A stretch of DNA of 28,262 nt from Phycisphaerae bacterium. Its GTDB lineage: Bacteria > Planctomycetota > Phycisphaerae > Sedimentisphaerales > SM23-30. Position numbers and translations under genes: made by a program. The notes below the pieces were generated by a model. That model made no database searches and had not been told where the DNA came from. It worked only from the letters and a program-made list of their open reading frames with translations. The first letter of the stretch is position 1. Each line of letters opens with the position of its first letter. Location of the stretch: positions 1-28,262 of the forward strand of contig JAIPFO010000001.1 of the NCBI GenBank assembly GCA_021736565.1, in the 5' to 3' direction. Shown here in pieces: positions 15,246-28,122 of this stretch.

Positions 15246-18200
15246 ATGATGAATTCTAATGATTATAATATGCCAGAATCCAATAAAAATGCAAGTACCA
15301 ATCGTAAGAAATTTCCGATTCGGCCCGGCCATATATCCCGATGGCTCAAATCCCACCAACGGCTGATCGTGCTGGGGGTGGTGATCTTGAGTATTATGGT
15401 CTGGAGCGGCGCAGGGAGTATTGGTGCCGAGGAAAATAAGTCCGATAATCAGGACGTTATTATAACCGACGAAGATGCGACCCCTTCGGCTAAGGAAACA
15501 GATGACGCAACAAATGATGACCAGAAGGTTGAATCGTCCAACGACATGGCCGATGCAAACGCTATAGAGGAGTTCTCTCCTGAAGACCTCCAAATGATGG
15601 AATTGATGGAGAGATGGGCCAAATCAGCTGAAGAAAACCCTGGTTCAGAAGAATCGAAAGATCTGGAAAAGCAACTGGAATCGGTCATGGAAAAAGCATT
15701 GCAGAAGTCCAATCCGACCCAGCCAGACCCTGTTGTTCTGCCCCCCAAAAAACCTGTTGTCAAAACGCAAAAAAACAATCCGGTTAAGCCCCCCATAAAA
15801 CCCAACGGCACCAAGCCTCCTGTCAAGCCGATAAAGCCTGTCCTACCCAATAAAACTACAATCAAGCCTACCAAATCGCCTATTCTGACCACTCCGACCC
15901 AAACCAGTACAGCCACGACAGCAACCCCGGCGGCTGTCAATGAGGACACCGACGCTAAAGTCGATCCGTTTACTCCACCGGTTGACCCGGATTCAGTTCA
16001 GATCAAGGTAAAAGATGACATCATCGACTTACAGGTTCTGATGGAACATGTGGGTAAGGAACTTCAATTAAACTTCCTGTATGACAGCGAGACTTACCCT
16101 GTCGGGAAGGTCAGACTGCAGCAGTATGGAAAAATTCCCCGTAATATGTTATTACCCTTACTGGAACATGTATTGCAAAAAGCAGGTTTTTCAATGGTAA
16201 AAGATGCGCCCTACATTCGGATCGTCAAAGAAACGGATGTCATCAAGAGCACACCGGTTTTCCCATCGGCTCATAATAATTTATCTGATGCGTCACCTGA
16301 ATCGCTGGTCACTCATATCGTTGAAATTGAATATGTACAAGCCAGTCAAGTCAAATCGGCCCTGGCACAGTTTACGACCTCATTGATCACTCAGATACCT
16401 GAGAGCAACATATTGATCCTGACCGAATATCCCAACAAATTAACACGATTGCTGGAAATTATTACATTCTTGGACCGCGCCGGCCCGGTCTCTCGGATGG
16501 AAGTATTGCATCCAAAATATTTACCCGTACAAGACCTTCAGAAAAAAATTGAAACGTTGATGACTGCGTTAAATGCGCAGCAGGCGGTTTCTTCGGGCGG
16601 TTCTTCCAGCGTAAACACTCCCACGCCCAACTTAAGTAAGATGTCACCGGCGGATCGAATGAAATATATTCGTGATCAACGCGCCAGGAAAGAGGCCGCG
16701 GCGAAAGCTCCAGGGACTTCCAGCACCACTGCGACGACCAAGCCCCTGGCGGCCAAGATGATCGCCGAGCCGCGTACCGAACGGCTGTTTGTGATCGGAA
16801 CCGATGATCAGATCGCCCAGGTGAAGCACTTATCAGACCTCTTTGATGTGCCGCAACCCGGCCCGGATATCTTTCTTGAATCCCTGCCGATGAAGCACGT
16901 GGAGGCCAAATCCGTTGAATCCCAGATCAAGGCCCTGTTCACGGAATTATATGAAGCCAAACCTGACCCGGCAATGGGTGGCAGCGACGCGAGGGTACCG
17001 ACCCCCATCTCGCGGACACCAAGCCGCTCCACGCCAAGCCGTTCTGCGCCTAATCCAGAGCCATCACTAACCGGCAGCAGTCCGAGTCATGGTCCATTTA
17101 TGTTGGTGGATGAACGGGTCAACCGGATATTGATCGTCGCCTCACGGGAAATGATTGACCAGGTAAAAGATTTACTGCTCGTTCTGGATATTCCCGTACC
17201 GGGCGCAGAGTTTCATCTGAATGTTTTTGAGTTTGAATATCTGCAAGCCGCTGATGCCGCCGAAAAACTCAATAAATTACTGGAAGCACTCGCCAGTCAG
17301 AAAACGAAAGAAGAACCATCACCGCCGACACCGCCAACGCCTTCGTCGCGAACCTCTATTTCATCGCGGACCCCGGTAAAAACGCCGAGCGAAAGCGGGT
17401 TTATTAAGCCGGGCGATGAAGGCCCGTTCATGATCACTGACGAACGGACCAATCGGCTACTGGTGGTAGGGACCGATGAACAGGTCGAACGGATCAGGGA
17501 CTTGCTCACGCTGCTGGATGTGCCATTGCCAGGGGGGGCAATTGTGATTAAACAGATCAAGATCCAATACGTCGAAGCCGAGACGGTCAGCGGGCAATTA
17601 AGCGAACTGATCGAAGCGATCAATAACCCCGATAAGGCCAAATCAGACAGTTCTCCCTCCCCCACCCCGCCCACCAGTTCGCGAACGTCATACCCCAGAC
17701 CTCCAAGCCCGGGAACAACACCCCAAACAAAAGGTTTTGTCAAAACCGGTGACATGGGTCCATTTATGCTGGTCGAGGAAAGAACCAACCGGCTGATCAT
17801 CGTCGGGACCGAAGAGCAGATCGTCCAGGTTGAAGAGTTACTGGGCATGCTGGATATTGCCGGTATTCAAATCAGGCTGGATGTGGTCGAGCTGAAATTT
17901 GTAGAGGCCGAAAGCGTGGCCGGTCAGATCGCCGAATTGATCGAGGCACTTAATAGCGGTAAACCCTCCCAGTCAAGTGTTAAATCTGGAACGAGCGAAG
18001 GGTCGCAACCTTCAACCCCAATAACTCCGATAAGAACATCCTCATCCTACAGGCCCCCTCCACAGGCCAGCCCATCCAAACAACTCCTCAAGACCTCGGA
18101 AGGAGGCCCATTCCTTGTTACCGATGGTCGAACGAACCGGTTACTGGTCGTCGGAACAGACGACCAGATTCGGCAGGTGCATGAACTGCTGGCGGTTCTG

Positions 18201-21098
18201 GATATTTCCGGCGAAGCGATCCTGATCGAAACCTATATCGTCGAACATGTGAATATTGAAAAAGTGACCGAACAACTCATGGAACTGGTTCCGGCACTTC
18301 GCAGCGACGAACCCAATAAAACCCCCGGAAAGCCTTCTTCGAATCGCACGAGCAGCACACCAACACGGTCAATGCCCGACGGGCTCAGAACGCCCTCCTC
18401 ATCCTCGTCGTCGTCACAAAGCAGTCGCTCACAAATGGTGAGCCCCTCCGAAGAGGGTCCATTATTGATCGCCGACCCCCGGACCTATCGGATTCTTGTC
18501 GTCGGAACCCAGGATCAGATTTCCCAGGTCGGTGACCTGCTGGTCATACTGGATGTGCCACTGAAAATTGAGATCCTGCCCTACCAGATGAAATATATCC
18601 CGGCAGACACTGCCGCTGAACAACTCAGCCAGTTATTGCAGGCCATTAACGTTGACGAGGACAGCTCGTCATCATCAGGCCGCCCAAAAACATCGCCTCA
18701 ATTAGTCGGACCGCCTCAGCCAGGTTCCCCGAGCAATCGCTCATCATTATCCTCGCGAAATCGCAGTTCTTCTTCCGGCCAGGGTGTCCAACTTGTCCAG
18801 GCCACCTCCAGCGGGCCCTATCTTCTGGCCGATGTAAGAACGAGTCGACTGATTATTATCGGTTCGGCACGTAAGGTCTCTGAGGCCCAGGAATTCCTCT
18901 CGCTACTGGATGTAAAAGTAGATCGTACGCTGGTATCACTACCGGTGAAACATGTCGAGCTTGAAACCATAACGAACCAGGTGGCCGATTTATTGGCGGT
19001 TTTGAACGAGCAGGAAGGCGCCGAGGCCTCTAGTAAGGGGTTATCCTCCTCGGGCCGCCGGTCGACACGAAGCAACACGACAGGGCGCACCGCGAACAGC
19101 GGTGGGATCACCGGGGGCATCACTCCCACCAATCAAACATCATCGTCCAGTAACAGTGTGGGCTCCTTGATCGAGATCATCCCGGCAGGGCCGTTTTTAC
19201 TGGCGAACGAACGAACCAGCCATCTGCTGGTGATCGGCAGTGTAAAACAGATCGAGCAGGTCCAGGATTTACTGAAGATGCTGGATGTTGACATGAACTT
19301 CAAACTCTACCCCGAGCAGATAACCAACGTTGCGGCCAGTGAGCTGGCCGGTCAGTTAGGAAACCTTATGGTATCGCTCACGGGTAAAGATCAAGTGTAT
19401 GGGGCCAGCTCCAGTGCCGGCAGTGCACGGAGCGGTTCCAGCCGAACGGGCAGTTCTACAAGCAGTCGAACCAATACCCCATCCGGGCAGACCATGATCA
19501 AAGTCACCGCCCAGGGCCCCTACCTGTTGCCCGATGACTCTACCAATCGATTACTGGTCGTAGCAACCGACAAACAGTATCAATCCGTCAAAGATTTACT
19601 GCCGGTATTGGATGTGTATAATGAATTCGGCCAGCGCCGATTGAAAACCTATCAGCCTAAATATGTCAATGCGACCGAAGTGATCAAGATACTGGATGAT
19701 TTGGGGATCACCAATAAGAAAGAATCAGGCGATATGCGACCGCGGGAGCGGGCGGGATTACTGGACAGGCCCGACCAGAGCGTCATTGCCGGCCAGCCCG
19801 GTGAAATGGCCTTTTTACCGGGAATGGAAGAACCGGATGTCTATGTCGCGGTACTGGAAACAATGAATAAGATTTTTGTCTACGGTCTGGAGTATCAGAT
19901 CAAGGGCATTGACGAGATCATGAAACATATCGACCTGGACCCCACCGATGCGTTTGGTCAATATGAGATCATTCCGCTGGAGAACCAGGATCCTGAATAT
20001 GTGTCCGATTGGCTCAGTGAGCTATTGGACACCGACCGCTATGAAAAGATCGGAGAGAACACGAAACTGGTTGACGGGGCGGAAGGCGCCCCGAAAATCG
20101 TTCCACTGGTCGAGATCTATTCGATCGGTGTTCGAGGTTCGGCCCGACAGCGAGAAGAGATCAAGAAGATAATCGACGTTCTGGACCGGCGAAAGCCCCA
20201 GGTCTTTGTTGAAGCAATTCTGGTACAATTAAATGAAAGTTCCGGGTTGAGCCTGGGCGTTCAGTTACAGGAAATATTTAAATCCGGCGGTGATAATATT
20301 TCGGTCCAGACCCCGTTTGGCTTCGGAGCGACGATGGGAACCAGTGGCGTTCTGAGCGGGTCCGGGTTAACGCTCGGTTATTATGATACAGATTTTGTCA
20401 AGGCCTCCATTGAAGCCATGGCGGATGAAGGCAATGGCAAAGTGGTCTCCATGCCCCGTATCACCGTGAATGACAATGAAGATGCGACGATGACCAGCGA
20501 ACGGGCAGAACCGACAACCGAGGTGGTGCTGCAGCCGGGTTCTGATACCACACGGGAAACCTTCAAAGGCTATGAAACCGCCGGGACAACACTGACGATT
20601 AAACCGCATATCAGTGAAGGTGATTTTCTGCAACTGGAGATCGGATTAAAGGTTGACAGCTTTGATGGAAAATCCCAGGGCAGTGTTCCGCCCCCCAAAA
20701 ACAGCAATGATATTAAAACAAATGTTACGGTTCCCAATAATATGATCGTTATCCTGGGTGGTTTGAAATCTCAGAACAATGGCACCTCGATAAGTAAAGT
20801 GCCTCTGCTGGGTGACCTGCCGCTTATCGGGTCACTGTTCAGAAGCGTCAACCATTCGGAGACCAGCGGTTATCTGTATGTGTTTGTCAAGGCCCAGATC
20901 ATTCGAAGTCCGGAAGATAAAAATAATCAAGCGGACTTTAGTGACCTGAAACGAATTTCCGAGAAAGCCTGGAACGAGAAAGAATCCCGAAAGATCAATT
21001 TCCGTGAGAAGCCGATCATTCCGGGTATCAAAATGAAAAAAGAAATGGATGACGAAGGCGACTCCAGCAGCCGGGAGACATTTTCCTCGCCCTACTAA
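15246..21098 (+). CDS. gspD: Giant type II secretion secretin (1950 aa): low-complexity N-terminus, N0, ~12 Secretin_N domains, secretin core, S-like tail
   Basis: N0 (DLQVLMEHVGKELQLNFLYD...LLEHVLQKAGF); repeated DERTNRLxxxGTxxQ...LD units; D..KPQVFVEA, MPRITVND, GTTLTIKPHI, IVILGGL, KVPLLGDLPLIGSLFR; directly upstream of gspE. Confidence 0.95.
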   Translation: MMNSNDYNMPESNKNASTNRKKFPIRPGHISRWLKSHQRLIVLGVVILSIMVWSGAGSIGAEENKSDNQDVIITDEDATPSAKETDDATNDDQKVESSNDMADANAIEEFSPEDLQMMELMERWAKSAEENPGSEESKDLEKQLESVMEKALQKSNPTQPDPVVLPPKKPVVKTQKNNPVKPPIKPNGTKPPVKPIKPVLPNKTTIKPTKSPILTTPTQTSTATTATPAAVNEDTDAKVDPFTPPVDPDSVQIKVKDDIIDLQVLMEHVGKELQLNFLYDSETYPVGKVRLQQYGKIPRNMLLPLLEHVLQKAGFSMVKDAPYIRIVKETDVIKSTPVFPSAHNNLSDASPESLVTHIVEIEYVQASQVKSALAQFTTSLITQIPESNILILTEYPNKLTRLLEIITFLDRAGPVSRMEVLHPKYLPVQDLQKKIETLMTALNAQQAVSSGGSSSVNTPTPNLSKMSPADRMKYIRDQRARKEAAAKAPGTSSTTATTKPLAAKMIAEPRTERLFVIGTDDQIAQVKHLSDLFDVPQPGPDIFLESLPMKHVEAKSVESQIKALFTELYEAKPDPAMGGSDARVPTPISRTPSRSTPSRSAPNPEPSLTGSSPSHGPFMLVDERVNRILIVASREMIDQVKDLLLVLDIPVPGAEFHLNVFEFEYLQAADAAEKLNKLLEALASQKTKEEPSPPTPPTPSSRTSISSRTPVKTPSESGFIKPGDEGPFMITDERTNRLLVVGTDEQVERIRDLLTLLDVPLPGGAIVIKQIKIQYVEAETVSGQLSELIEAINNPDKAKSDSSPSPTPPTSSRTSYPRPPSPGTTPQTKGFVKTGDMGPFMLVEERTNRLIIVGTEEQIVQVEELLGMLDIAGIQIRLDVVELKFVEAESVAGQIAELIEALNSGKPSQSSVKSGTSEGSQPSTPITPIRTSSSYRPPPQASPSKQLLKTSEGGPFLVTDGRTNRLLVVGTDDQIRQVHELLAVLDISGEAILIETYIVEHVNIEKVTEQLMELVPALRSDEPNKTPGKPSSNRTSSTPTRSMPDGLRTPSSSSSSSQSSRSQMVSPSEEGPLLIADPRTYRILVVGTQDQISQVGDLLVILDVPLKIEILPYQMKYIPADTAAEQLSQLLQAINVDEDSSSSSGRPKTSPQLVGPPQPGSPSNRSSLSSRNRSSSSGQGVQLVQATSSGPYLLADVRTSRLIIIGSARKVSEAQEFLSLLDVKVDRTLVSLPVKHVELETITNQVADLLAVLNEQEGAEASSKGLSSSGRRSTRSNTTGRTANSGGITGGITPTNQTSSSSNSVGSLIEIIPAGPFLLANERTSHLLVIGSVKQIEQVQDLLKMLDVDMNFKLYPEQITNVAASELAGQLGNLMVSLTGKDQVYGASSSAGSARSGSSRTGSSTSSRTNTPSGQTMIKVTAQGPYLLPDDSTNRLLVVATDKQYQSVKDLLPVLDVYNEFGQRRLKTYQPKYVNATEVIKILDDLGITNKKESGDMRPRERAGLLDRPDQSVIAGQPGEMAFLPGMEEPDVYVAVLETMNKIFVYGLEYQIKGIDEIMKHIDLDPTDAFGQYEIIPLENQDPEYVSDWLSELLDTDRYEKIGENTKLVDGAEGAPKIVPLVEIYSIGVRGSARQREEIKKIIDVLDRRKPQVFVEAILVQLNESSGLSLGVQLQEIFKSGGDNISVQTPFGFGATMGTSGVLSGSGLTLGYYDTDFVKASIEAMADEGNGKVVSMPRITVNDNEDATMTSERAEPTTEVVLQPGSDTTRETFKGYETAGTTLTIKPHISEGDFLQLEIGLKVDSFDGKSQGSVPPPKNSNDIKTNVTVPNNMIVILGGLKSQNNGTSISKVPLLGDLPLIGSLFRSVNHSETSGYLYVFVKAQIIRSPEDKNNQADFSDLKRISEKAWNEKESRKINFREKPIIPGIKMKKEMDDEGDSSSRETFSSPY

Positions 21099-21223: not shown

Positions 21224-22942
21224 ATGAAAGAACAGTTACTTGAGATAGCTCGCACGAAGCAGATATTAGACGCGGAGATGTTGGAGCATTTCATAACCCA
21301 ATATGAATCGACCCAGAGGGGCGATCATGATGGCGATGGAGAGACTCTGGACGCGGCCCTGCTGCGTTCGGGCCATTTCACCGAAGATGAGATCTTGCGA
21401 CTTTTTGGCGAATACCTGGAGATCCCCTTCCTGGAGCAGATCCAGCCGGCGATGGTCCCCGCGCATTTTGTCACGTCGGTCCCGTCCAATTACGCGCACC
21501 ATCATCACCTGGTGGCGACCGACCAGAACGATTCGACGATGACGATAGCGGTCTGCAAACCGTTGAGTTTGTATCCGCTGGACAATGTCGCCAAGATGGT
21601 CGGCCGGGCGGTCTCACCGGCCCTGGCGACCAAGGCCACGATCAATACCGCGATTAACGCCGCCTACGAACAGCGAACGACGGTATTGGAAGATGTGGCT
21701 GGTGATGTCGATAGCCATAGCCTGGAAGGGCTGCTGGGCGACGCCTCGAATTCCGAAGACCTTCTTGATGTCGTTAATCGTCCGCCCGTGATTCGCCTGG
21801 TCAATGACATCTTGTTTAAAGCCCTCCAGATGCGCACCAGTGATGTCCATATTCACCCGTTTGAACAGCGGGTCGTCATCCGCTATCGCATCGACGGCTT
21901 GCTCTATGACATGCTCACGCTGGATTATCGTACCCTCCCGGTCATTGTCTCACGTATTAAGGTGATGGCAGGGATGGATGTTGCCGAACGTCGCATGCCG
22001 CAGGATGGCCGGTGCAGTGTGCGGATCGGACCGCGGGAGATCGACCTGCGTGTCAGTACCGTGCCGACGGCCTATGGTGAACGGACGGTGCTGCGTCTGC
22101 TGGATAAAAGCTCCGGGGTGTATAACTTGAAGGACTTGGGGCTGGGCGAATCGGAGTTTGGCCGGATTGATGAATTGATCAAACGGCCGCACGGTATTTT
22201 CTTTGTCACCGGTCCGACCGGCAGCGGTAAAACGACCACACTCTACAGTTTTCTACAGCGAATTGATTCGACGACAAAAAATATTATTACCGTCGAAGAC
22301 CCGATCGAATATCAGCTTGACGGGATCAGCCAGATCCAGGTGGCCACCAAAAAAGGAATGACCTTTATCACCGCCCTGCGTCATGTCCTGCGACAGGACC
22401 CCGATGTCATTATGATCGGTGAAGTCCGTGACGAAGAAACCGCTCGCATGGTGATCCAGTCGTCCCTGACCGGCCACCTGGTGTTCAGCACGCTCCACAC
22501 CAACGACGCTTCCGGCGCGGTCACGCGTCTTCTGGATTTCGGGGTGGAACCCTACCTGGTGGCCTCCTCCGTCGCGGGTGTATTGGCCCAGCGGCTCGTG
22601 CGGCGACTATGCCCTCATTGCAAAGAAATAATCCCATCGGATTCAAAACAAATCCAGAAGCTGGGACTCAGTCATGCGGGATTTGAGAAAGTCTACCACA
22701 GCAAAGGCTGTGACAAGTGCTTCCAGACGGGCTACATGGGGCGAACGGGGATATATGAACTCATGACGATCAATGACGACATACGTCAGGGCATCTATCA
22801 GCGGGGCACCGCCGGTGCGATAAAAAAATCGGCGATTGAAGCGGGCATGACCACGCTGAGAATGGATGGCCTTCGAAAAGTGGAAGAAGGCGTGACGTCC
22901 CTGGAGGAAGTTTTACGCATAGCACAATCGGATGACGTCTGA
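21224..22942 (+). CDS. gspE: Type II secretion ATPase GspE/PulE
   Basis: SDVHIHP, RYRIDG, DVAERRMPQDG, Walker A GPTGSGKTT, TVEDPIEY, LRQDPDVIMIGEVRD, STLHTNDA, tetracysteine CPHC...CDKC. Confidence 0.96.
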   Translation: MKEQLLEIARTKQILDAEMLEHFITQYESTQRGDHDGDGETLDAALLRSGHFTEDEILRLFGEYLEIPFLEQIQPAMVPAHFVTSVPSNYAHHHHLVATDQNDSTMTIAVCKPLSLYPLDNVAKMVGRAVSPALATKATINTAINAAYEQRTTVLEDVAGDVDSHSLEGLLGDASNSEDLLDVVNRPPVIRLVNDILFKALQMRTSDVHIHPFEQRVVIRYRIDGLLYDMLTLDYRTLPVIVSRIKVMAGMDVAERRMPQDGRCSVRIGPREIDLRVSTVPTAYGERTVLRLLDKSSGVYNLKDLGLGESEFGRIDELIKRPHGIFFVTGPTGSGKTTTLYSFLQRIDSTTKNIITVEDPIEYQLDGISQIQVATKKGMTFITALRHVLRQDPDVIMIGEVRDEETARMVIQSSLTGHLVFSTLHTNDASGAVTRLLDFGVEPYLVASSVAGVLAQRLVRRLCPHCKEIIPSDSKQIQKLGLSHAGFEKVYHSKGCDKCFQTGYMGRTGIYELMTINDDIRQGIYQRGTAGAIKKSAIEAGMTTLRMDGLRKVEEGVTSLEEVLRIAQSDDV

Positions 22943-22957
22943 CCCCATCGTCCTAAG

Positions 22958-22972
22958 TCAACTTTTGACGCG
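22958..22972 (+). repeat. Right-end fragment of the intergenic repeat (copy F)
   Basis: tcaacttttgacgcg, 13 bp before the gspF ATG; identical to the end of copy D2. Confidence 0.7.
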
Positions 22973-22985
22973 AGAGTTAATTATT

Positions 22986-24206
22986 ATGCCAACCTTTGAA
23001 TACATCGCTTTAGATCGTCAGGGAAAACAGGTTCGCGGCAGCATCGCCGCTGAATCGGCTTCCGCTGCGCGCAAACTGATGCGGACCCGGCAGCTGCATA
23101 CCAAAAAGCTGCGGTCTGTCAGCGAGGCATCCCACAGCGGCAGCTTTGAACTGGGCCAGTTATTCAGCAGTAAACGCCGGCGAATGGTCTTGGAGTTCAC
23201 CAAGCAATTGGCCACGATGATCAAGGCGGATGTCAAATTGACCGAATCGCTGGGGGTCATGATCGCGCAATCCACCGATCCAAAGTTCACCCAGATATTG
23301 CAGAATATCCGTGACCAGCTTCTCTCGGGTGAAAACCTGGCCGATGGGCTCAGGGAATATCCCGGTTGGTTTGACACGATCTATGTCTCGATGGTGCGGG
23401 TCGGTGAAGCGACAGGCAACCTGGGCCGATCGCTGAATCTGCTGAGCGAATATATCGGTAAACGCCAGAAACTGGAAACCAAGGTCAAATCGGCCCTGAC
23501 CTATCCGGCGGTACTGGTGGTGATCTGTCTCCTGGCCACCGTGTTTTTAATGACAGTCGTTGTACCGAAGCTGGCGAAGATTATTATCAGTAGCGGTAAG
23601 GAACTACCCGCCGTGACACAAATCATGATGAATACCAGTAATTTTCTGATTAGCTGGTGGTGGCTGGTACTTATCGCCCTGGCGTTTGGCAGCTGGATGT
23701 TACGACAATTTATCCGATCGAACAAAGGCCGGACCCTGTTTGACCGGTTGATATTGAGAATACCGGTTATTGGCGAATTGATGCGTCAGAGTATTGTCGC
23801 ACGATTTTCATCGACGCTTGCCGCACTGATTCGCAGCGGGATGCCGATTGCCGACAGTCTCAAGATCGTCGCCGATGTCACAGGTAATACGATCATGAAT
23901 AAAGCGGTTCGCGAGGCGCGGGATCGCATTATCGGCGGGGCCGATATCGCCACACCTCTCCGTGAAAGTAAAGTCGTCGGACCGGCGGTGGCCCATATGA
24001 TCTCGGTGGGCGAGCGATCGGGCGAATTGGAATCCATGCTCGTTACCGTTGCCAAGGATATCGAAGAAGCGACCGATGAGACGGTTCAGCGGATCAGCTC
24101 GGTGATCGAACCGGTGATCATTGTTGTCATGGCAGTCGTTGTCGGGCTGATTATTTACTCGATTGTCCTGCCGATCATGCAGGTGTCCGATATTGGAGGG
24201 ATATAA
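22986..24206 (+). CDS. gspF: Type II secretion inner-membrane platform protein GspF/PilC
   Basis: MPTFEYIALDRQGKQVRGSIAAES, FTKQLATM, MVRVGEATGNL, ALTYP, MISVGERSGEL, SVIEP. Start moved from 22932 to ATG 22986. Confidence 0.95.
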   Translation: MPTFEYIALDRQGKQVRGSIAAESASAARKLMRTRQLHTKKLRSVSEASHSGSFELGQLFSSKRRRMVLEFTKQLATMIKADVKLTESLGVMIAQSTDPKFTQILQNIRDQLLSGENLADGLREYPGWFDTIYVSMVRVGEATGNLGRSLNLLSEYIGKRQKLETKVKSALTYPAVLVVICLLATVFLMTVVVPKLAKIIISSGKELPAVTQIMMNTSNFLISWWWLVLIALAFGSWMLRQFIRSNKGRTLFDRLILRIPVIGELMRQSIVARFSSTLAALIRSGMPIADSLKIVADVTGNTIMNKAVREARDRIIGGADIATPLRESKVVGPAVAHMISVGERSGELESMLVTVAKDIEEATDETVQRISSVIEPVIIVVMAVVVGLIIYSIVLPIMQVSDIGGI

Positions 24207-24224
24207 AGCACAAGAAAACAAACG

Positions 24225-24268
24225 CGTACTCACGCGAATGCGTACTTCCGTACTTTTTAGATCGTACT
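24225..24268. repeat. Four spaced CGTACT hexamers between gspF and gspG
   Basis: cgtact at 24225, 24241, 24249 and 24263. Confidence 0.5.
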
Positions 24269-24397
24269 TGATTCAATGCGTTATCTCGCGGGCATGAATT
24301 TGTGTACAAAAAAAGTGCGAAATTCAACCGAATGAACCTTAAGGAATATGAAACCATGAAATATAACAGACACATTTTATTTTGTAAGGAGTTTTTG

Positions 24398-24859
24398 ATG
24401 ATGAGAAAGACAGTTACTTTAAGCAAGGACCGGAACCGTGCGGGTTTCAGTCTGGTAGAATTAATGGTGGTCATTGTGATCATCGGGCTACTGGCCGGCG
24501 TGGTCGGGGTGAATGTTATTGACATGATTTACAAAGGGAAAGTCGGCGCGGCCAAAGCACAGATGGCAACTTTCGAAACAGGTATTGATAATTTCAAAAT
24601 CGATACCGGCCAATACCCCGTGGAATTAGCGGAATTGGCCAATCCGGGAGACATCACCGGTGCCAGCCCGACCGGATACCTCAAAGGTGCCACCGAAATT
24701 CCCCTGGACCCATGGAACAATGAATATGTTTATGAACTGACCGGGGACAGTATCACACCCTATACCTTGTATTGTACCGGAGCCGATGGCATGGATGGCG
24801 CCGAAAATGAAGAAGGTCGCGACTTCAATGTTAAAGGTTACCTGGATGCTGTCGAGTAA
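24398..24859 (+). CDS. gspG: Major pseudopilin GspG
   Basis: AG|FSLVELMVVIVIIGLLAG, NFKIDTGQYP, PLDPWNNEYVY, GADG; TAAGGAG RBS before ATG 24398. Confidence 0.95.
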   Translation: MMRKTVTLSKDRNRAGFSLVELMVVIVIIGLLAGVVGVNVIDMIYKGKVGAAKAQMATFETGIDNFKIDTGQYPVELAELANPGDITGASPTGYLKGATEIPLDPWNNEYVYELTGDSITPYTLYCTGADGMDGAENEEGRDFNVKGYLDAVE

Positions 24860-24891
24860 ACATTACGCCGTGAACACCATGGACGTCTCCA

Positions 24892-25470
24892 ATGCTGATG
24901 GGCAGAATAACAATGACAATCCCAAAAAGTAAAACCTTTCGCCAGTGTTCCCCCAGCGGCTACGTTCTGGTGGAACTGGCGGTTGTCATTACCCTGATGG
25001 CCCTGTTAGTCGGGATTGTCGTGGTTCCCTCTGTTGGCCCGATACGCCGGGCCAGAGTCCATGACGATATTTCAAAATTTTGCCAGACGCTGCGATTGGT
25101 GGCCGAAGAGGCCGTGCTGCAAAACCGTCGGTTCACGATCGTGATCGATGTGACCAACGGCTATTACAACGTCTATGAAGAAAAGGCTAAAACCGATTAT
25201 GACATGTATGACGAACCGGTACTCGGCCAGGGAAGCCTGGATATCAGCTACATTGAGCAGGCCGTTTTCCAGGATGGCAAACACACGCTCTCAGGGAATA
25301 TGGAACTCAAAGCAACCCCGAACGGCTGGCAACAGTCGGTTCTGCTTGACCTGATAGATGACCGGATGGAGCAGCCCCATTACATCCGCTTTGACCAGGG
25401 GACCACCCGGGTCATGGTATCACGGCAGAAGCTGGAATTACCCGCGGTGAAGAAAGACCTATCGCTTTGA
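24892..25470 (+). CDS. gspH: Minor pseudopilin GspH-like
   Basis: SG|YVLVELAVVITLMALLVG followed by ...LRLVAEEAVLQ; follows gspG. Start uncertain (24892, 24898 or 24913). Confidence 0.8.
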   Translation: MLMGRITMTIPKSKTFRQCSPSGYVLVELAVVITLMALLVGIVVVPSVGPIRRARVHDDISKFCQTLRLVAEEAVLQNRRFTIVIDVTNGYYNVYEEKAKTDYDMYDEPVLGQGSLDISYIEQAVFQDGKHTLSGNMELKATPNGWQQSVLLDLIDDRMEQPHYIRFDQGTTRVMVSRQKLELPAVKKDLSL

Positions 25471-25503
25471 ATAACGGACCATCGAATGCCCGTGTGATAA
25501 ATA

Positions 25504-26256
25504 ATGACGCGAACAGATGTTACAACTAAAAATACCGCCAACGTGAGTGCCGAAACTCACCGCGGCCACCAGCGACCCGGCTTTACGCTGATAGAAGCGG
25601 TGGCGGCCATGTTCATTTTGACGCTGGCGATGACAGGGATCATCGTAGCCTATCATCGCACTTTGGAGTCCGTGGGTGAGCAGATCCTCCGGGAACGGGC
25701 ACTGGCCGTGGCACAACGCCATATGGAGTCTCTCCTGGGCACCCTGGAAGAACCCAACAGTATTGTCACGTCGGGGCATGATAAGATCGACCCGTTTTTC
25801 AACTGGAAGATGGAACTGAAACGGATCGCCGTAGGCGAAAAAAAGGCCCGTTCCGATGGGGCCAATACGGTGATCAGTGCCCGGGTGACCGTCTCGTGTG
25901 ACCGGGAAGGCGCCAAATCGTTTAAGCCGATATCCCTGACACGGTATTTTTCCAAACTCAAACCCACAGAAGGTAATGCCATAGCGGTGCCCCTGGAAAT
26001 GGAGATGCCCGAAGATGAACAATGGTATCAGGATCTGGAAAAAGAACTGGGGCGCAAGCCGACCCCGGACGACATCATGGCCCATTTTCTAAAAACGATG
26101 ATCGCCCCCAACGACAATGACCGGGACGCGGATAATAGACGGACAGAAAAGGACGATGGGGCAGGCCGTAATAAGGATAATGGCGAAAGTGATGTGTTTA
26201 ATAAAAAAATCGAGGTATTGAACGAAGAAGACCTTCTGAAATTATTGCAGGAATAA
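25504..26256 (+). CDS. gspI: Minor pseudopilin GspI-like with long charged C-terminal extension
   Basis: PG|FTLIEAVAAMFILTLAMTGII...ERALAVAQRHME...FNWKMEL; position between H and J. Confidence 0.75.
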   Translation: MTRTDVTTKNTANVSAETHRGHQRPGFTLIEAVAAMFILTLAMTGIIVAYHRTLESVGEQILRERALAVAQRHMESLLGTLEEPNSIVTSGHDKIDPFFNWKMELKRIAVGEKKARSDGANTVISARVTVSCDREGAKSFKPISLTRYFSKLKPTEGNAIAVPLEMEMPEDEQWYQDLEKELGRKPTPDDIMAHFLKTMIAPNDNDRDADNRRTEKDDGAGRNKDNGESDVFNKKIEVLNEEDLLKLLQE

Positions 26257-26258
26257 CG

Positions 26259-26843
26259 ATGCGGCCACATGCTTTTTCAGTATTAGAATTGATCGTGACC
26301 CTGACGATCGTGGCGTTACTCACCGTCGCGGTCCTGGGACTGTTGAATGGAACGACCGCGCAAAGTGCGCGGGTTAATCAGCGTATGGAGCAGATGGGTG
26401 CGATTAATATGTGCATGGACCGGCTGATGGATGATGTGATCAAGGCCGCTGAAGACGACACCCGGTGGCATGTTAAAAAAGGCTATCGTCAGCAAATGAA
26501 AACATCCCATCTGACCATCCAGCGAATGGGCGGCGGTGAAAAAAGCGACTTGATATGGCAGATCGACTGGATCGCCACGCCCAGTGAGGATGGCGAGGAT
26601 CTAACCTTATATCGCCGGGAGAAAACCGGCAAGAAAAATGACGAAACGGATGTGTTTATCCCGCTGTGCGAACATTTGTATTCGTTCGACGTGCAAATGA
26701 TCAACGAAGAGGGACTGGACGACCCCAATGCCGCCCCGGCGGTCATCCAGGTAAAGGCCGAACTGTTCCGGATGCCCGAACATGAACCGGATTTTTTACT
26801 GCCGGTCAATCAAACCTATTGCCTGCGGCGATTTGGCAAATAA
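26259..26843 (+). CDS. gspJ: Minor pseudopilin GspJ-like
   Basis: HA|FSVLELIVTLTIVALL...MDRLMDDV...LTLYRRE; position between I and K. Confidence 0.78.
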   Translation: MRPHAFSVLELIVTLTIVALLTVAVLGLLNGTTAQSARVNQRMEQMGAINMCMDRLMDDVIKAAEDDTRWHVKKGYRQQMKTSHLTIQRMGGGEKSDLIWQIDWIATPSEDGEDLTLYRREKTGKKNDETDVFIPLCEHLYSFDVQMINEEGLDDPNAAPAVIQVKAELFRMPEHEPDFLLPVNQTYCLRRFGK

Positions 26844-26877
26844 TCAATACCCCGATGGGGTGCGTAAGAAACAACAG

Positions 26878-28122
26878 ATGGAAAGACATTCATCACAATT
26901 GAATACGAAAGGCTCGCGCATCAACAAGCGAGGGTTCGTGCTGATGCTGACGTTAATGATGCTGGTATTGATCACCAGCGTGATCGTCAACTTTCAGGCG
27001 GACACCACCCTGCATGTGCGTGCCAGTACATTTCGCCAGGATTATGTGCAATGTCGGTACGCGGCCGAATCCGGAATGATTGCCGGGAAGTTTCTGGTCA
27101 TTGAGCTCCTCACCGATAGAAAAGCCCTGACTGCTATCAAACCCGGCAGCAGCCAAAAGAAGAAAACCATCGCCCTGGACCCCAATGCGCTGGACGACCC
27201 CAACACCCTCGACGACCTGATCAAAAATATACTGGCGGACCCCAATGCGCTGGAATTTGAAGAGGCACCCCTGGAAGAGAAATCCCAACGGAAGATGGAG
27301 TTACTTTTAAAGGAGAAGAGGATCCAGGTGGGCAAGGCCGACGTGTTGGTCCAGATCTTTGACGAAACCGGTAAGCTGCCGATGATGTGGGTGGCACAAT
27401 CCCCCTATATCGGCACCAAGGACCCCGATCTCCTCAAAAATCTCGGGAACTATCTCGGAGCCCCCCCGGCAACGTCCAGACGGGCTAAAAAAATTGCGGA
27501 TGACATCTCAAAACCCTTAAATATCCCCGCTGCGTTTAATTCTGTTCAACAGGACGGGAGCCGTACCAGCAGCTCCCGCCGTGCGACGAGCAGCTCTCAG
27601 CAGCAATGGAAAGTACGCGGGCTTCGCCTGTCAAGCAAAAAGCGAGCCGAACACAGCAAACAGCGGTACGATTCCATGGCGAGCTTTGCATCCACATGGA
27701 ACCGGGAGGTGCAACCCGACACAGATAATGACGTGCTACTGGAACCGCTGAACGCGCATCCCGGGGCATTTTCAGATTACCTGGGCACCTGGGGTCACGA
27801 CAAGGTCAACATCAATACCGCACCGGTCGAAGTACTTGAAGCGGCCTTAAAGCCATTGGGCGTCACACGGGCCATGGCCGAAAAGATCGTGACATTGCGT
27901 GAGGAGAAGCCGATAGGCCATCCCACAGCGTTACGTCAGTTCGATGAGTTCGAGGCATTGATCCCCGCGCTGGTCGCCTTGACCATGCCCTTGAGTAATA
28001 CCTTTACCATTCGTGTTACGGCCACGTTAGGCCGGACGGAATATACATTGTTTTCAGCGGTTTATAAATCCCCCTTTGCTGATGGCGGGATTATGACACA
28101 AGCTATTTATGCAGGAGAATAA
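26878..28122 (+). CDS. gspK: Minor pseudopilin GspK
   Basis: KRG|FVLMLTLMMLVLI (no Glu+5, typical of GspK), CRYAAESG, IFDETGKL, KVNINTAPVEVLEA, FTIRVTA. Start moved from 26782 to ATG 26878. Confidence 0.88.
   Translation: MERHSSQLNTKGSRINKRGFVLMLTLMMLVLITSVIVNFQADTTLHVRASTFRQDYVQCRYAAESGMIAGKFLVIELLTDRKALTAIKPGSSQKKKTIALDPNALDDPNTLDDLIKNILADPNALEFEEAPLEEKSQRKMELLLKEKRIQVGKADVLVQIFDETGKLPMMWVAQSPYIGTKDPDLLKNLGNYLGAPPATSRRAKKIADDISKPLNIPAAFNSVQQDGSRTSSSRRATSSSQQQWKVRGLRLSSKKRAEHSKQRYDSMASFASTWNREVQPDTDNDVLLEPLNAHPGAFSDYLGTWGHDKVNINTAPVEVLEAALKPLGVTRAMAEKIVTLREEKPIGHPTALRQFDEFEALIPALVALTMPLSNTFTIRVTATLGRTEYTLFSAVYKSPFADGGIMTQAIYAGE

Follow-up and report, generated by a model that had tools for sequence, protein, structure and literature searches.

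The current understanding of secretin gating has been built on channels with three to six rings and a single periplasmic constriction. In the solved structures, this constriction is linked to a variable insertion in the N3 domain, located at residues 217-267 in InvG and 288-303 in PulD and present also in f1 pIV and Deinococcus radiodurans GspD, which is disordered and points into the pore. The N3 loop of f1 pIV was reported to be disordered and aimed at the pore centre (PMC8563730), while loop 288-303 of PulD was left unmodelled in a channel with constriction sites in its N3 domain (10.1101/397794); in the solved secretins, the insertion site faces the lumen (PMC8563730; 10.1101/397794). D. 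radiodurans GspD (PDB 8co1) has a constriction of ~67 Å at N3. In needle-bound InvG, parts of the variable loop become structured, contribute to the interface by which the ring is built, and lie packed between N1 and N3. Thermus PilQ possesses a second periplasmic gate (Gate 2) made from N-domain loops (PMC5745081). The present analysis concerns a 1950-residue protein, predicted to be a GspD-type secretin of a type II secretion system (T2SS), which is encoded in a 28,262-nt stretch of DNA from a Phycisphaerae bacterium (positions 1 to 28,262 of contig JAIPFO010000001.1, hereafter the window) and in which nine consecutive N domains each carry a long insertion of this kind. Nine rings with disordered loops of constrained length pose the question of how such a long conduit is sealed and yet passes a pseudopilus together with folded proteins.

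The repeats were mapped with two hidden Markov models (HMMs) made from the protein's own repeats, one covering the β1-α1 half and the other the β2-β3-α2 half of the domain. These half-domain HMMs located 12 Secretin_N units (U1 to U12). The gap between the two halves is 0 aa in U1, 41-59 aa in U2-U10 (individual lengths are given in Table 1), 38 aa in U11, and 15 aa in U12, with a regular unit period of 107-125 aa across U2-U10. Both the half-domain HMMs and the strand-helix-coil-strand-strand-helix pattern in AlphaFold2 (AF2) models place the insertion site after helix 1 and before strand 2 of the ring-building fold. Altogether, the nine long inserts span 16578-19514 of the window and amount to 440 aa, or 23% of the protein. 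An earlier note, made from the DNA sequence alone, had described nine consecutive units with a low-complexity insert at a fixed position, and this was borne out for U2-U10; the three peptides that it quoted were recovered in U4, U7, and U10, and its range of 16570-19500 agrees with the inserts, except that the last one extends 14 nt past 19500.

When the unit profile was compared with PDB entries, its best match was the N3 domain of D. radiodurans GspD (8co1), which contains a low-complexity insert of ~55 aa at the identical site. The chain sequences of E. coli K-12 GspD and P. aeruginosa XcpQ hold shorter polar or Gly-rich N3 loops at the equivalent place and, along with the unmodelled PulD segment, bear out the earlier note's statement that some T2SS secretins have a single disordered loop in N3, in that a single low-complexity N3 loop is present in classical T2SS secretins. 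The assignment of the units as N2-like or N3-like is ambiguous, as the second half of the profile scored best on E. coli GspD N2 and the whole unit on D. radiodurans N3. The nine inserts are the secretin variable insertion at the helix 1-strand 2 junction of the N domain that builds the rings, present in nine stacked domains rather than one. The type of element is hence a known one, and the novelty resides in nine consecutive rings bearing it, with only 15 residues in U12. Given this short loop in the barrel-adjacent ring, the usual N3 constriction element appears to be minimal in this protein. The insert of U11 is of a different kind. Throughout the family it opens with a conserved RPRERA-like sequence and closes with a conserved PG[LM]EEP, and this conservation at both ends points to a specific element close to the barrel, either structured or involved in binding. 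A second AF2 model, comprising U10-U12 and the barrel and based on a 7-row alignment, had a mean predicted local distance difference test score (pLDDT) of 51, too poor to judge the order of the U11 insert.

The nine inserts stand apart from the remaining protein in their composition. The summed fraction of Ser, Thr, Pro, and Arg (STPR) is 0.44-0.66 in the inserts versus 0.22 elsewhere, that of Phe, Trp, and Tyr is 0-0.05 versus 0.05, and that of Ile, Leu, Val, and Met is 0.05-0.14 versus 0.30, consistent with the earlier description of them as Ser/Thr/Pro/Arg-rich and poor in aromatics. The proposed disorder also stood up when it was checked. In an AF2 model of U4-U6, for which unit triples from seven orthologues were aligned (37 rows), the cores showed the expected strand-helix-strand-strand-helix pattern at pLDDT 65-78, and the three inserts were without secondary structure at pLDDT 28-39 over the residues listed in Table 1. 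The top Foldseek matches of this model were N domains of T2SS secretins. In a charge-hydropathy plot, eight of the nine inserts fell on the disordered side of the boundary and all of the cores on the folded side. The inserts are thus predicted to be intrinsically disordered, polar, and weakly basic chains. Most units have a short hydrophobic stretch (FIK, FVK, LLK, MIKV, and similar) within the final ~10 residues of the insert, a pattern with 13 occurrences against 1.0 expected from composition-preserving shuffles. AF2 modelled this stretch (aa 720-725, 831-837, and 947-953 and the equivalents, e.g. 17403-17420 of the window) as an additional strand that pairs with strand 2 in a hairpin; the stretch is found again in relatives but is absent from classical GspD N domains. 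Because these terminal residues were modelled as a strand, the fully disordered part is shorter than the insert itself, at ~32-40 aa per insert in U4-U6, for which the alignment was the deeper one.

Such an array is exceptional within its own genome. Among the 1594 open reading frames (ORFs) of at least 250 aa, the secretin ranks first for STPR-rich windows with nine, namely eight of the inserts and the N-terminal linker. The other five secretins encoded in this genome show only 0-2 such windows each and no periodic array, which rules out the STPR-rich inserts being a general habit of the genome. Recent microsatellite slippage was likewise rejected as the origin of the inserts, as the gene contains a single 24-nt tandem repeat and its Ser residues are spread over all six codons. 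The motif [ST][ST]R[ST] occurs 16 times against 4.4 +/- 2.1 in shuffles, though at positions that are not fixed and with a count inflated by the close pair P0004/P0005, and the case for a conserved linear motif is weak. A second very long ORF (2792 aa, minus strand, contig C121 of the same genome, G000) contains eight STPR-rich windows. Long antisense ORFs run across the insert region at 17297-17848 (-) and 18818-19132 (-); these frames are probably stop-free because the inserts are richer in GC (0.58 versus 0.49).

Orthologues with open frames of 1040-1967 aa were found in 23 of the 24 genomes searched within the family, and the nearest named relatives belong to metagenome-assembled genomes of Sedimentisphaerales/Phycisphaerae (phylum Planctomycetota). 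Three genomes in the family are closed, or almost so, a hint that isolates exist. Other families of the order have shorter relatives of ~1000-1380 aa with about three units of ~110-aa period and STPR-rich segments before strand 2. In a representative library of 1.84 billion proteins, the whole insert-bearing unit is matched 3-11 times by each of ~45 clusters (50% identity; 1000-1960 aa). Two samples were drawn from these relatives, 61 inserts from 11 genomes of the family and 114 inserts from 30 cluster representatives. Insert length over both is 32-68 aa, with a median of 49-50 and an interquartile range (IQR) of 43-53. Family-wide, the composition is Ser 13%, Thr 12%, Pro 10-12%, Ala 10-12%, Arg 9-10%, and Gly 9-11%, with ~1-2% Phe plus Tyr and neither Trp nor Cys. 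The sequence of the inserts is not conserved across relatives, and no conserved columns are present in the insert region. Within the protein, only the inserts of U4 and U5 are recognisably similar (z 7.1 versus shuffles), the other pairs having a median z of 0.5; this residual similarity implies that inserts were copied together with their units as the array grew and diverged thereafter. In a tree of the unit cores, the first, the second-to-last, and the last STPR units group by position across genomes and the middle units by lineage, a pattern which would reflect lineage-specific internal duplications but is only indicative given the short alignment.

In spite of this divergence, the inserts are under constraint. 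For two unsaturated orthologue pairs, the Nei-Gojobori method gave the inserts a ratio of non-synonymous to synonymous substitution rates (dN/dS) of 0.29 (bootstrap 0.18-0.43) and 0.19 (0.11-0.32), compared with 0.07 and 0.01 for the cores; indels are few. The inserts therefore evolve faster than the cores, by a factor of 4-19, and are still subject to purifying selection, with values well below 1. Composition is further graded along the stack: the Pro fraction is ~0.2 in the units nearest the inner membrane and drops to ~0.05 by the last STPR unit, with Gly tending upward. The series for the protein itself is given in Table 1, and Arg shows no consistent trend here. Pro and unit position correlate negatively by rank in all 15 orthologues and in 14 of the 15 cluster representatives examined, two sets that overlap in part. 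The inserts are Pro/Thr-rich near the inner-membrane end and Gly/Ser/Arg-rich near the outer-membrane end. Selection acts on the presence, the length (~43-53 aa), and the position-specific composition of the inserts and not on their exact sequence. A conserved positive charge, also considered, was ruled out by a net charge that ranges from -5 to +8 among relatives.

The most probable reading, to which a probability of roughly 0.4 is assigned, is that the loops act as serial soft constrictions, rooted on the lumen side and displaced between the rings during secretion, as if the behaviour of InvG were repeated ninefold. By analogy with the N3 loops of InvG, PulD/GspD, and f1 pIV, the loops would be rooted on the lumen side of each ring and, at rest, would collapse into the channel to form a series of soft constrictions. 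These would occlude the long periplasmic conduit, which may measure ~45-50 nm (estimated from ~3.5 nm per ring), and so keep periplasmic contents out and stop leakage. The passage of the pseudopilus and folded substrate would push the loops aside, probably out between adjacent rings in the manner of the InvG loop around its needle, and the displaced loops may transiently brace the ring stack. Nine loops in a 15-mer make 135 loops and ~6,600 disordered residues per channel, in keeping with the earlier note's figure of over 100 disordered chains per assembly. With ring dimensions taken from published inner diameters (67-77 Å) and a height of ~33-40 Å estimated from published overall lengths, the loops, if all were luminal, are calculated to reach 0.54-0.93 g/ml and to take up 40-68% of the lumen volume. 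Such a filling would amount to a near-solid plug instead of the brush suggested earlier, and would be incompatible with a pseudopilus unless the loops were expelled.

Several considerations weigh against serial luminal constrictions. The precedents all concern the barrel-adjacent N3 ring, which has only 15 aa at this position here, the long loops being in the distal rings. The luminal orientation is carried over to this protein from the literature on other secretins, and the estimated filling means that the loops could not stay in the lumen during secretion; permanent residence outside it is equally possible. The dN/dS values come from two pairs, analysed with a simple method on sequence of biased composition, the related genomes showing the Pro trend are not independent samples, and the net charge of the inserts varies in sign.

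The main rival, though unlikely on present evidence, is that the loops serve as structural straps, which would lie mainly between or outside the rings, fold against their neighbours upon assembly, and staple the long 13-ring tube without any part in gating. In its favour are the ordering of the InvG loop between N1 and N3, the semi-conserved hydrophobic strand at the C-terminal end of many inserts (13 versus 1.0 expected, and a strand in AF2), the narrow length range (IQR 43-53 aa), which would fit the reach to a fixed partner, and the lumen estimate, which speaks against permanent luminal residence. Apart from that short strand, however, the inserts lack the sequence conservation that would be usual for a specific interface, and AF2 finds no structure in chains made of Ser, Thr, Pro, Gly, and Arg with ~1-2% aromatics. 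It is less probable still that the inserts are tolerated low-complexity filler, that is, sequence accepted at a permissive helix 1-strand 2 site, inherited by unit duplication, and drifting with no specific function. Their fast divergence (only U4/U5 remaining similar, z 7.1, against a median z of 0.5 for the other pairs), the free variation of this site across secretins, and the unconserved net charge are what drift would produce; it would not readily account for dN/dS of 0.19-0.29, well under 1, for a very narrow length distribution with few indels, for a conserved, position-specific Pro-to-Gly gradient, or for inserts that are kept across an order when the five other secretins of the genome have no such array.

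As modification scaffolds, the Ser/Thr-rich loops would be O-glycosylated in the periplasm to yield a hydrated, protease-resistant lining or coat, a proposal which fits either location and is regarded as improbable. The mucin-like composition (25% Ser plus Thr and ~11% Pro family-wide) invites it. Three proteins of the PMT_2 family and two of the Wzy_C family are encoded in the genome, but 9 of 14 control genomes also have members of these families (e.g. ArnT and WaaL), which makes them uninformative; no sequon was found, and no glycosyltransferase is linked within the window. Phosphorylation, the other modification put forward earlier, is unlikely, as the periplasm is ATP-free. Least probable is a selective phase resembling that of FG-nucleoporins, in which a cohesive disordered meshwork would pass only cognate substrates. 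Many disordered chains anchored at a channel wall, and the weak enrichment of [ST][ST]R[ST] (16 versus 4.4 +/- 2.1), speak for it, but FG or other aromatic cohesive repeats are not visible in the listed inserts, aromatics are at ~1-2% family-wide, and a hydrogel would be far less dense than the 0.54-0.93 g/ml calculated here. T2SS substrates are, moreover, pushed by a pseudopilus that nearly fills the secretin lumen. The filter of this kind envisaged by the earlier note is accordingly not supported. A more speculative reading, itself a long shot, is that the ~135 loops would form a graded polymer lining of the ~45-50 nm tube, stiffer at the Pro-rich entrance and flexible near the outer-membrane gate where Gly, Ser, and Arg prevail, and would take an active role in transport as a self-sealing, direction-biased barrier that closes behind the substrate or pseudopilus.

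The assignment of the gene itself draws on several models. The ORF at 15246-21098 (+) translates to 1950 aa, in which the Pfam Secretin_N model scored 251 bits over seven stretches and the C-terminal Secretin domain PF00263 scored 121.9 bits against a cut-off of 27.5 bits, the latter being seen again in the genome search. The NCBIfam GspD equivalog TIGR02517 was passed with 425.7 bits against a cut-off of 351.35, and the NCBIfam models for PilQ, SctC, MshL, and HofQ each stayed below their own cut-offs on this protein. The N0 model PF21305 reached 18.4 bits, under its 27-bit cut-off; the same family is precomputed for the homologues P0004, P0005, and P0007. Genes for GspE, GspF, GspG, pseudopilins, and a GspK-like protein follow directly 3' of the secretin gene (Table 1), in an order that is identical at locus L019. 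With the GspD equivalog match and these downstream genes, the protein is therefore predicted to be the GspD-type secretin of a T2SS operon. Upstream of N0 (window 15360-16010, aa ~39-255), a hydrophobic segment at aa ~39-56 is followed by ~200 aa of low complexity, acidic at first and then Lys/Pro-rich and Thr-rich. This region could combine a signal anchor with a long spacer reaching to the inner membrane, similar to a region related to that membrane which has been reported for D. radiodurans GspD. With six secretins (open frames of 629-1963 aa; contigs C43, C140, C171, C200, and C232; loci L001-L006), the genome has a large number for its size of 2.9 Mb (71% complete).

Table 1. Coordinates of the secretin gene, its domains and inserts, and the downstream T2SS genes in the window.
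Feature	Position (nt)	Strand	Residues or length	Remarks	Basis
Giant GspD-type secretin gene (predicted)	15246..21098	+	1950 aa	Signal or anchor segment, N-terminal low-complexity stretch, putative N0, 12 Secretin_N units, secretin barrel	Translation, Pfam, NCBIfam; orthologues
N0 domain (weak match)	16026..16223	+	aa 261-326		PF21305, 18.4 bits; homologue annotation
Unit 1	16305..16490	+	aa 354-415	Secretin_N without insert	Half-domain HMMs
Units 2-10	16491..19628	+	aa 416-1461	Nine consecutive insert-bearing Secretin_N, period 107-125 aa	Half-domain HMMs
Insert U2	16578..16748	+	57 aa	Pro 0.09; lowest STPR (0.44); holds a charged Lys/Arg/Glu stretch	HMM gap
Insert U3	16956..17090	+	45 aa	Pro 0.22	HMM gap
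Insert U4	17298..17420	+	41 aa	Pro 0.22; pLDDT <50 at aa 686-717; recognisable homologue of insert U5	HMM gap, AF2
Insert U5	17628..17756	+	43 aa	Pro 0.23; pLDDT <50 at aa 796-829	HMM gap, AF2
Insert U6	17958..18104	+	49 aa	Pro 0.16; pLDDT <50 at aa 905-944	HMM gap, AF2
Insert U7	18306..18455	+	50 aa	Pro 0.14; Ser 0.34	HMM gap
Insert U8	18654..18812	+	53 aa	Pro 0.11; Ser 0.34	HMM gap
Insert U9	19011..19187	+	59 aa	Pro 0.03; Gly 0.15	HMM gap
Insert U10	19386..19514	+	43 aa	Pro 0.02; Gly/Ser/Arg-rich; pLDDT 30-34 in a low-quality model	HMM gap, AF2
Insert U11	19722..19835	+	38 aa (aa 1493-1530)	Different kind: acidic/Arg-rich	HMM gap, family alignment
Loop of U12	20043..20087	+	15 aa (aa 1600-1614)	Barrel-adjacent ring, N3 position	HMM gap
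Secretin (barrel/gate) domain PF00263	20415..20906	+	aa 1724-1887		Pfam, genome search
Remaining T2SS operon	21224..28122	+			Pfam families T2SSE, T2SSF, T2SSG, N_methyl, T2SSK
GspE	21224-22942	+			T2SSE
GspF	22932-24206	+			T2SSF
GspG	24302-24859	+			T2SSG
Three N_methyl pseudopilins	up to 26843	+			N_methyl
GspK-like	26782-28122	+			T2SSK

No description of planctomycete or Phycisphaerae multi-ring secretins, or of repeated N-domain loops, was found in the literature searched. Should the loops prove luminal, no bacterial transport channel would make more extensive use of disordered chains in its interior, and a graded self-sealing lining would be a bacterial counterpart of disordered-chain gating that is not known from any secretion system; should they turn out to be straps, they would account for the stability of very long secretin tubes. 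The Pro-to-Gly gradient and the purifying selection offer concrete, testable handles on the question.

Compared with known systems, the protein shares with the classical GspD, PulD, XcpQ, and ExeD the Secretin barrel, a passing TIGR02517 score, Secretin_N domains, and an operon with GspE/F/G/K, and may also share N0, but has 1950 aa and 12 Secretin_N units where these have ~650 aa and three. With the PilQ of Thermus thermophilus it has in common a long multi-ring tube (six rings, N0-N5, in PilQ) across a wide periplasm and, potentially, a second gate of flexible loops (PMC5745081). PilQ differs, however, in being a type IV pilus/DNA-uptake secretin of 757 aa and six rings, whose Gate 2 is formed by the β1-α1 and β2-β3 loops of one ring (N1), whereas the inserts here sit in the α1-β2 loop of nine rings. 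The library also holds many giant secretins of 3000-5500 aa (P0041-P0159) with 10-23 Secretin_N-like stretches, well beyond any characterised. Those of the Planctomycetes-Verrucomicrobia-Chlamydiae (PVC) bacteria resemble the present protein in their large tandem Secretin_N arrays, but in most of their units the match is confined to the second half of the profile, and the spacing is often ~70-80 aa, meaning that there is no long insert. The clade with the insert-bearing unit of ~110 aa is smaller than this class of giants. The closest likeness is to the N3 variable insertions of InvG, PulD, f1 pIV, K-12 GspD, XcpQ, and D. radiodurans GspD (DR_0774), which occupy the same helix 1-strand 2 site, are polar, of low complexity, and disordered or unmodelled, and, at ~16-55 aa, are similar in length to the 41-59 aa found here. 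The site, the predicted disorder (pLDDT 28-39), the lack of conserved insert columns, and dN/dS at 4-19 times that of the cores all agree with such an insertion; the barrel-adjacent location does not, as the long inserts occupy U2-U10, U11 carries one of another kind, and U12 retains 15 aa. Known secretins have one such loop per subunit, in the barrel-adjacent ring, whereas the present protein has them in nine distal rings, with a composition graded along the stack.

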